From: Escherichia coli
GTDB lineage: Bacteria > Pseudomonadota > Gammaproteobacteria > Enterobacterales > Enterobacteriaceae
Length of the DNA: 693 bases
Strand: one strand, 5' to 3'
Assembly: GCF_003334405.1 (NCBI RefSeq)
Contig: NZ_QOWM01000056.1
Each line of letters starts with the position of its first letter. The stretch's first letter is position 1. The notes beneath the pieces were generated by a model. It did not search any database. It saw only the letters and a program-made list of their open reading frames with translations, and was not told where the DNA came from. Shown here piece after piece: positions 1 through 693 of the stretch. The translations under genes and the position numbers were made by a program.

Positions 1-673
1 GGGTCTATACCCTGCAACTTAACGCCCAGTTAAGACTCGGTTTCCCTTCGGCTCCCCTATTCGGTTAACCTTGCTACAGAATATAAGTCGCTGACCCATT
101 ATACAAAAGGTACGCAGTCACACGCCTAAGCGTGCTCCCACTGCTTGTACGTACACGGTTTCAGGTTCTTTTTCACTCCCCTCGCCGGGGTTCTTTTCGC
201 CTTTCCCTCACGGTACTGGTTCACTATCGGTCAGTCAGGAGTATTTAGCCTTGGAGGATGGTCCCCCCATATTCAGACAGGATACCACGTGTCCCGCCCT
301 ACTCATCGAGCTCACAGCATGTGCATTTTTGTGTACGGGGCTGTCACCCTGTATCGCGCGCCTTTCCAGACGCTTCCACTAACACACACACTGATTCAGG
401 CTCTGGGCTGCTCCCCGTTCGCTCGCCGCTACTGGGGGAATCTCGGTTGATTTCTTTTCCTCGGGGTACTTAGATGTTTCAGTTCCCCCGGTTCGCCTCA
501 TTAACCTATGGATTCAGTTAATGATAGTGTGTCGAAACACACTGGGTTTCCCCATTCGGAAATCGCCGGTTATAACGGTTCATATCACCTTACCGACGCT
601 TATCGCAGATTAGCACGTCCTTCATCGCCTCTGACTGCCAGGGCATCCACCGTGTACGCTTAGTCGCTTAACC
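1..673 (-). rRNA. rrl: 23S (LSU) ribosomal RNA, 5' portion (domain I and start of domain II); partial, gene continues past window position 1
   Basis: Reverse complement of 637-673 reads GGTTAAGCGACTAAGCGTACACGGTGGATGCCCTGGC, the canonical mature 5' end of enterobacterial 23S rRNA. Further universally conserved 23S blocks follow in the correct order on the minus strand: CTGAAACATCTAAGTA (rc of 467-482), CCCCAGTAGCGGCGAGCGAACGGGGAGCAGCCC (rc of ~406-438), ACCGATAGTGAACCAGTACCGTGAGGGAAAGGCGAAAAGAACCCCGGCGAGGGGAGTGAAA (rc of ~173-231), and GGGTATAGACCC (rc of 1-12). Colinear over the whole window with no indels that I can detect by eye. Confidence 0.97.
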
Positions 674-693
674 TCACAACCCGAAGATGTTTC
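674..693 (-). other. pre-23S 5' leader / 16S-23S spacer segment directly upstream of the mature 23S 5' end (one strand of the presumed RNase III processing stem)
   Basis: Reverse complement of 674-693 is GAAACATCTTCGGGTTGTGA, immediately abutting the mature 5' end GGTTAAGCG. In enterobacterial rrn operons this flanking sequence pairs with sequence 3' of 23S to form the RNase III processing stem. The pairing partner lies outside the window, so the boundary and role are inferred from established knowledge rather than seen. Confidence 0.6.

Follow-up and report, generated by a model that had tools for sequence, protein, structure and literature searches.

Positions 674 to 693 (minus strand) of the window, which is the whole 693-nt stretch of Escherichia coli DNA analysed here, are almost certainly the last 20 nt (-20 to -1) of the spacer between 16S and 23S in an E. 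coli rrn operon, and as such make up the 5' strand of the proximal helix in which pre-23S is processed. The feature is confirmed as a textbook one, a strand of the stem at which RNase III processes E. coli pre-23S rRNA; it is already known and represents no new biology. None of the evidence gathered contradicts the processing-stem reading. The leader's identity and position, its genomic context, its complementarity and its covariation were computed in this analysis, and the cleavage positions and the enzymes involved are taken from the literature.

Read in the RNA sense, window 674-693 is GAAACAUCUUCGGGUUGUGA, in exact agreement with the earlier note, which had described these residues as the 20 nt upstream of the mature 23S 5' end. 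The reverse complement, GAAACATCTTCGGGTTGTGA, has a single exact match in the window, on the minus strand, compared with 0 expected from 200 shuffles; the match is not a chance one. The minus strand of the window thus starts with GAAACATCTTCGGGTTGTGA (leader), followed directly by GGTTAAGCGACTAAGCG (23S). Comparison of window 673 to 1 with the Rfam bacterial LSU rRNA model (RF02541) gave 614.4 bits (E 7.5e-201, model positions 1-716), and the full gene in an identical E. coli locus, L001 (strain 503025, rrnD locus), gave 2878.7 bits; both pass the gathering threshold of 50 bits. Position 1 of the LSU model falls on window 673, and the annotated 23S start is the same base both in L001 (3521) and in all seven MG1655 operons. 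Because model position 1 and the annotated start coincide at window 673, window 674-693 is exactly -20 to -1 of the mature 23S, directly 5' of its 5' end and on its strand, and the placement given in the earlier note is precise to the nucleotide. The 20 nt of the leader stop at the window edge. The coordinates of the features are collected in Table 1.

Table 1. Features of the window and of the identical locus L001, in which the window occupies 3501-4193 (identity checked)
Feature	Position	Strand	Basis
23S rRNA, first 673 nt (LSU model positions 1-716), truncated by window start	window 1..673	-	Rfam RF02541; 23S annotation in identical E. coli loci
23S nt 1-8 (GGUUAAGC), helix 1 5' strand	window 666..673	-	Cofolds; alignment A1
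Leader -1 to -7 (RNA GUUGUGA), 7-nt 5' extension of pre-23S after RNase III	window 674..680	-	Cofolds and alignment; extension from PMC7261194, PMC12817084
Leader -8 to -20 (RNA GAAACAUCUUCGG), spacer-side stem strand distal to RNase III cut; also last 13 nt of StyR-44	window 681..693	-	Cofold, covariation, RF01830
16S	L001 1533-3074	23S strand	Record annotation, Rfam
tRNA-Ile(GAU)	L001 3143-3219	23S strand	Record annotation, ARAGORN, Rfam
tRNA-Ala(UGC)	L001 3262-3337	23S strand	Record annotation, ARAGORN, Rfam
23S	L001 3521-6422	minus in window terms	Record annotation, Rfam
5S, then tRNA-Thr, then 5S	after 23S in L001		Record annotation, ARAGORN, Rfam

Apart from the LSU rRNA, the Rfam scan of the window returned only a weak resemblance to the archaeal C/D-box snoRNA sR10 at 206-255 (16.3 bits against a gathering score of 45, E 0.13), which is rejected as a chance resemblance inside the 23S. 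A tRNA scan found no tRNA genes in the window itself, as expected.

The flanking context was read from E. coli loci identical to the window rather than from the window's own contig. All contexts examined have, beyond 693, either tRNA-Ala and tRNA-Ile or tRNA-Glu, followed by the 16S, on the same strand as the 23S. In L001 the spacer is of the Ala/Ile type, and in MG1655 rrnB, rrnE and rrnG, which are identical to the window, tRNA-Glu precedes the 16S on the 23S strand. The leader accordingly lies in the 16S-23S spacer, downstream of the 16S and of the spacer tRNA or tRNAs, as seen from the L001 annotation, ARAGORN and Rfam, and in 7/7 MG1655 operons. The minus-strand tRNAs and 16S predicted by the earlier note beyond 693 are therefore present on the identical loci, and the leader serves, as proposed there, as an orientation landmark: it shows on which strand of the window, and in which direction, the rrn operon runs.

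Over its whole length the window is 100% identical to sequences on E. coli chromosomes. It has a match in 5426/5426 complete genomes of the collection, at a median of 7 places per genome. In K-12 it is identical to four operons, three with tRNA-Glu spacers (rrnB, rrnE and rrnG) and one with an Ile/Ala spacer (rrnD), and assignment to a single rrn operon is ruled out by this identity. Since operons of both types match exactly, the spacer type (Glu or Ile/Ala) is undecidable from the window, and the earlier wording, which left the choice between tRNA-Ile plus tRNA-Ala and tRNA-Glu, was apt. The other three operons show 1-3 mismatches, at window 410 and 132 in rrnH, at 389, 318 and 317 in rrnC and at 358 in rrnA. 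The leader 20-mer is invariant across all seven K-12 operons, and the spacers diverge directly upstream of -20. At that point, the rrnD operons of strain 503025 and MG1655 (L004) differ, with the 'cacgatgatgaatcgaaa' spacer type in the former and the 'ctctgaagt' type in the latter. Spacer types have evidently been exchanged among operons, and gene conversion is the presumed route.

The leader is predicted to pair with the segment immediately 3' of the 23S gene, the first 19 nt of which are ACAACGCCGAAGNUGUUUU. When the leader and 23S nt 1-8 were folded with the 23S 3' end and trailer of eight E. coli operons (the seven of MG1655 and L001), a single continuous helix of 27-28 bp was obtained in loci identical to the window as in the others, with stem energies of -33.6 kcal/mol in rrnB, rrnD, rrnG, rrnH and L001, and of -37.7 to -38.3 kcal/mol in rrnA, rrnC and rrnE. 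In the predicted structure, leader -20 to -1 pairs with the trailer from +19 back to the last two nucleotides of the 23S, with a bulged G at +6. Leader -1 to -7 pairs with these last two nucleotides and trailer +1 to +5 in both the cofolds and the alignment described below, and leader -8 to -20 pairs with trailer +7 to +19 in the cofold. The first eight nucleotides of the 23S pair with its 3' end (GCUUAACC), so that in the cofolds the processing stem stacks directly on helix 1. Trailer +13 is C, A or G among the K-12 operons and lies opposite U-14, giving a U.C mismatch in 4/7 and a U-A or U.G pair in 3/7; bulge and mismatch details are predictions from folding rather than from probing data.

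The partner of the leader is specific. Against the 23-nt trailer the 20-mer gave -20.5 kcal/mol, compared with -8.7 +/- 2.5 kcal/mol for shuffled trailers, of which 1/1000 was as low, and its best 23-nt partner on the entire 7.7-kb L001 locus starts at 6418-6423, that is, at the 23S 3' end and trailer. This agrees with the claim of the earlier note that the leader base-pairs with the 23S 3' trailer.

The same proximal helix was present in the minimum free energy (MFE) structure of 21/21 distinct gammaproteobacterial operons cofolded. Its outer end lies at -19 to -22 in 20/21, and the window edge therefore corresponds to the outer end of the proximal helix. When the complete spacer and the complete trailer were folded together, additional distal helices were predicted in E. 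coli, one between -41 to -56 and +21 to +32 and another between about -88 to -109 and +34 to +55. These lie outside the window (L001 3412-3480 with 6443-6477), and distal helices of 16-25 bp were predicted at similar positions in 18/21 of the gammaproteobacterial operons. The full processing stem thus probably extends past -20 through more distal helices.

Comparison across the Gammaproteobacteria indicates that the pairing has been retained in evolution by compensatory changes. Species-representative genomes were scanned with a conserved 23S 5' pattern, which gave 120 stretches, mostly short rRNA contig fragments. A complete 23S with both flanks was present in 38/120, corresponding to 24 distinct leader/trailer combinations, 20 of which were aligned. 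The resulting gap-free alignment (A1) comprises 20 distinct constructs of leader, helix 1, 3' end and trailer, from E. coli, Enterobacter, Citrobacter, Pantoea, Tatumella, Erwinia, Vibrionales, Photobacterium, Thaumasiovibrio, Arsukibacterium and Endozoicomonas, on which the E. coli structure was counted. Standard pairs occupy 96.8% of stem cells, compared with 35-47% in slid registers; as the structure is derived from E. coli, the unslid register is somewhat favoured in this comparison, whereas the counts of compensatory pairs are unaffected. Eleven pairs are changed on both sides, including 10 among the 20 leader pairs (shuffles 6.6 +/- 1.3), and the covariation score is 0.316 against 0.161 in shuffles, with 0/500 shuffles as high. 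Among the pairs of leader -8 to -20, 8/13 are changed on both sides. Exchanges of A-U for C-G or G-C are numerous at -15/+14, -14/+13 and -10/+9, and these cannot be explained by register bias. The eight pairs of helix 1 (A1 columns 23-30 with 37-44) are standard in every cell in 20/20 sequences; two of them vary, one on a single side (C-G/U-G) and the other on both (U-A/C-G), and the remaining six do not.

A number of further observations were made on these sequences. Pantoea, Tatumella and Erwinia share a G.G mismatch at mid-stem, at leader -11/trailer +10 (A1 columns 12/56), where other taxa have U-A; the RNase III cut of E. coli is three pairs away. Pantoea sp. 1.19 (L037) contains the 23S 5' pattern twice, at 9843-9887 and 10062-10106, 219 nt apart and with the same 40-nt leader before each, which represents either a tandem duplication of the leader and 23S 5' end or an assembly artefact. 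In Endozoicomonas ascidiicola and E. numazuensis (L108-L111, L119), the 23S genes span 2965-3163 nt, compared with 2890 nt in E. elysicola. This suggests the presence of intervening sequences in some copies.

RNase III cuts within stems made by the rRNA flanks, such that the pre-23S keeps 7 nt at its 5' end and is cut 8 nt past the 3' end (PMC7261194). [quoted passage not shown] The duplex had been proposed in the earlier note to be the RNase III substrate, and cleavage is thus documented for it. Mapped on to the window, the published 5' cut falls between 681 and 680 (-8/-7). As -8 pairs with +7 in the predicted duplex and the cuts are at -8/-7 and +8/+9, cleavage would leave the 2-nt 3' overhang that RNase III normally leaves, and we infer that the geometry of the predicted duplex fits this enzyme.

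The following sequence of events can be proposed. Once the 23S gene of approximately 2.9 kb had been transcribed, the leader would pair with the last two nucleotides of the 23S and 19 trailer nucleotides, and the helix would stack coaxially on helix 1 to give the 27-28 bp. RNase III would then cut the duplex at window 681/680 and, on the opposite strand, at +8/+9, releasing a pre-23S with 7 extra nucleotides at the 5' end and 8 at the 3' end. Trimming of the 23S 3' end, by RNase PH, RNase II and others and then by RNase T, has to precede 5' maturation (PMC7261194), and would free the 5' extension. Four nucleotides of this extension are taken off by an unknown enzyme, to +3, and the last three by RNase AM (PMC7261194); the freed extension would be matured in this way. 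The outer 13 nt (window 681-693) would be lost as part of the excised spacer fragment, which is most likely the RNA cloned as StyR-44 (109 nt).

StyR-44 (RF01830) matches L001 3405-3513 with 122.9 bits, well above the gathering score of 54, and the locus can be assigned to this family. The match corresponds to -116 to -8, and only its final 13 nt are inside the window, which gave no Rfam match to StyR-44 when searched alone. Its 5' end presumably lies within the spacer boxA (TGCTCTTTAAAAA, about L001 3401-3413), and its 3' end is the nucleotide just before the published RNase III cut. The RNA was identified in Salmonella Typhi (npcRNA 44), cloned as a 109-nt RNA encoded upstream of the 23S in all seven operons, and assigned to the rRNA operon, perhaps as an intermediate of processing; its authors allowed that it may be a metastable by-product of maturation (PMC2943607). 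That its 3' end coincides with the RNase III site speaks for such a maturation intermediate. StyR-44 is most likely an excised spacer fragment and not an independent RNA gene, its 3' end being, as we infer, an RNase III product end.

It could be argued instead that window 681-693 matters chiefly as the 3' terminus of an independently folding, functional small RNA, and that pairing with the trailer is incidental. The Rfam match, which ends at window 681, is far over threshold, and StyR-44 has been seen on northern blots, with growth-regulated expression, in both S. Typhi and E. coli (PMC2943607). The Rfam consensus structure joins -16 to -9 (CAUCUUCG) to an upstream CGAUGAUG, and in MFE folds of -60 to -8 the 3' end is part of a hairpin for most species and for both spacer types of E. 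coli. However, with an upstream partner in -50 to -21, the local hairpin had a mean z of -0.72 relative to shuffles and was at or below 0.05 in just 5/21 loci, and the own partner beat a partner swapped from another species in 67% of comparisons, as against 92% for the trailer. Pairing of -20 to -8 gave -13.6 to -20.1 kcal/mol with the trailer, compared with -1.8 to -9.6 kcal/mol with the upstream partner, and it is the trailer pairing that clearly covaries. Furthermore, the discoverers of StyR-44 themselves entertained a by-product origin (PMC2943607). The small-RNA and processing readings are also compatible with each other, as a fragment left over from RNase III cleavage would have its 3' end at precisely -8. 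An independent small RNA is a very improbable explanation of this segment.

The local hairpin, with weak support from the z value and the own-partner comparison, is not claimed here as a feature. Leader -17 to -8 (window 681-690) can nevertheless pair upstream, with CGAUGAUG in the rrnB-type spacer or with CUGAAG in the rrnG-type spacer, and such pairing would compete with the trailer; although they differ upstream of -20, both E. coli spacer types are still able to pair with CAUCUUCGG. Transient structures in pre-23S rRNA have been discussed in the field before. It is conceivable, if rather unlikely, that leader -17 to -8 toggles between two exclusive partners, the upstream spacer first, immediately on transcription (as the 3' hairpin of StyR-44), and the 23S trailer approximately 2.9 kb later. 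If so, the hairpin would serve as a placeholder during transcription, shielding the strand or setting the time of stem formation, and would later stabilize the excised fragment.

That the 20 nt are a chance, non-functional flank, their pairing with the trailer merely reflecting conservation among close relatives, has next to no likelihood: the invariance of the 20-mer within E. coli means that this species alone offers no leader-side covariation, but the reading is refuted by the two-sided changes that preserve half of the leader pairs across the 20 distinct operons (and by the collapse of pairing in slid registers), by the variation of trailer +13 within one genome, which yields U-A and U.G pairs with U-14 in three operons, and by the published biochemistry of cleavage (PMC12817084, PMC7261194).

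The processing-stem strand in the window shows no difference from the known E. coli pre-23S RNase III stem (Bram, Young and Steitz 1980, cited in PMC7261194). Its sequence is identical in the seven K-12 operons, at the same position (-20 to -1) and with the same partner, the 23S 3' trailer, and the published cuts, 7 nt upstream and 8 nt downstream, fit the predicted duplex. The window holds the 5' strand of the proximal helix only, the 3' strand and the distal helices being outside it. StyR-44 resembles the feature in that window 681-693 forms its last 13 nt and that it lies upstream of the 23S in all rrn operons, and differs in being catalogued as an RNA gene, although its 3' end is at the RNase III cut. 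The leader-trailer helix of the 16S shares the principle that the flanks of an rRNA pair at long distance to form an RNase III substrate (PMC7261194, PMC10250234). It is, however, a separate stem of the same operon that flanks the 16S, and it is cut much farther out, at -115 and 22 nt past the mature 16S 3' end (PMC12817084).

The value of the feature is that of an annotation landmark only, marking the mature 23S 5' end, the RNase III cut and the orientation of the rrn operon. In the adjoining 23S, window 132, 317, 318, 358, 389 and 410 are sites of intragenomic heterogeneity, which could help to assign reads to operons. On the spacer side, the curated StyR-44 'gene' is shown to end at the RNase III cut.
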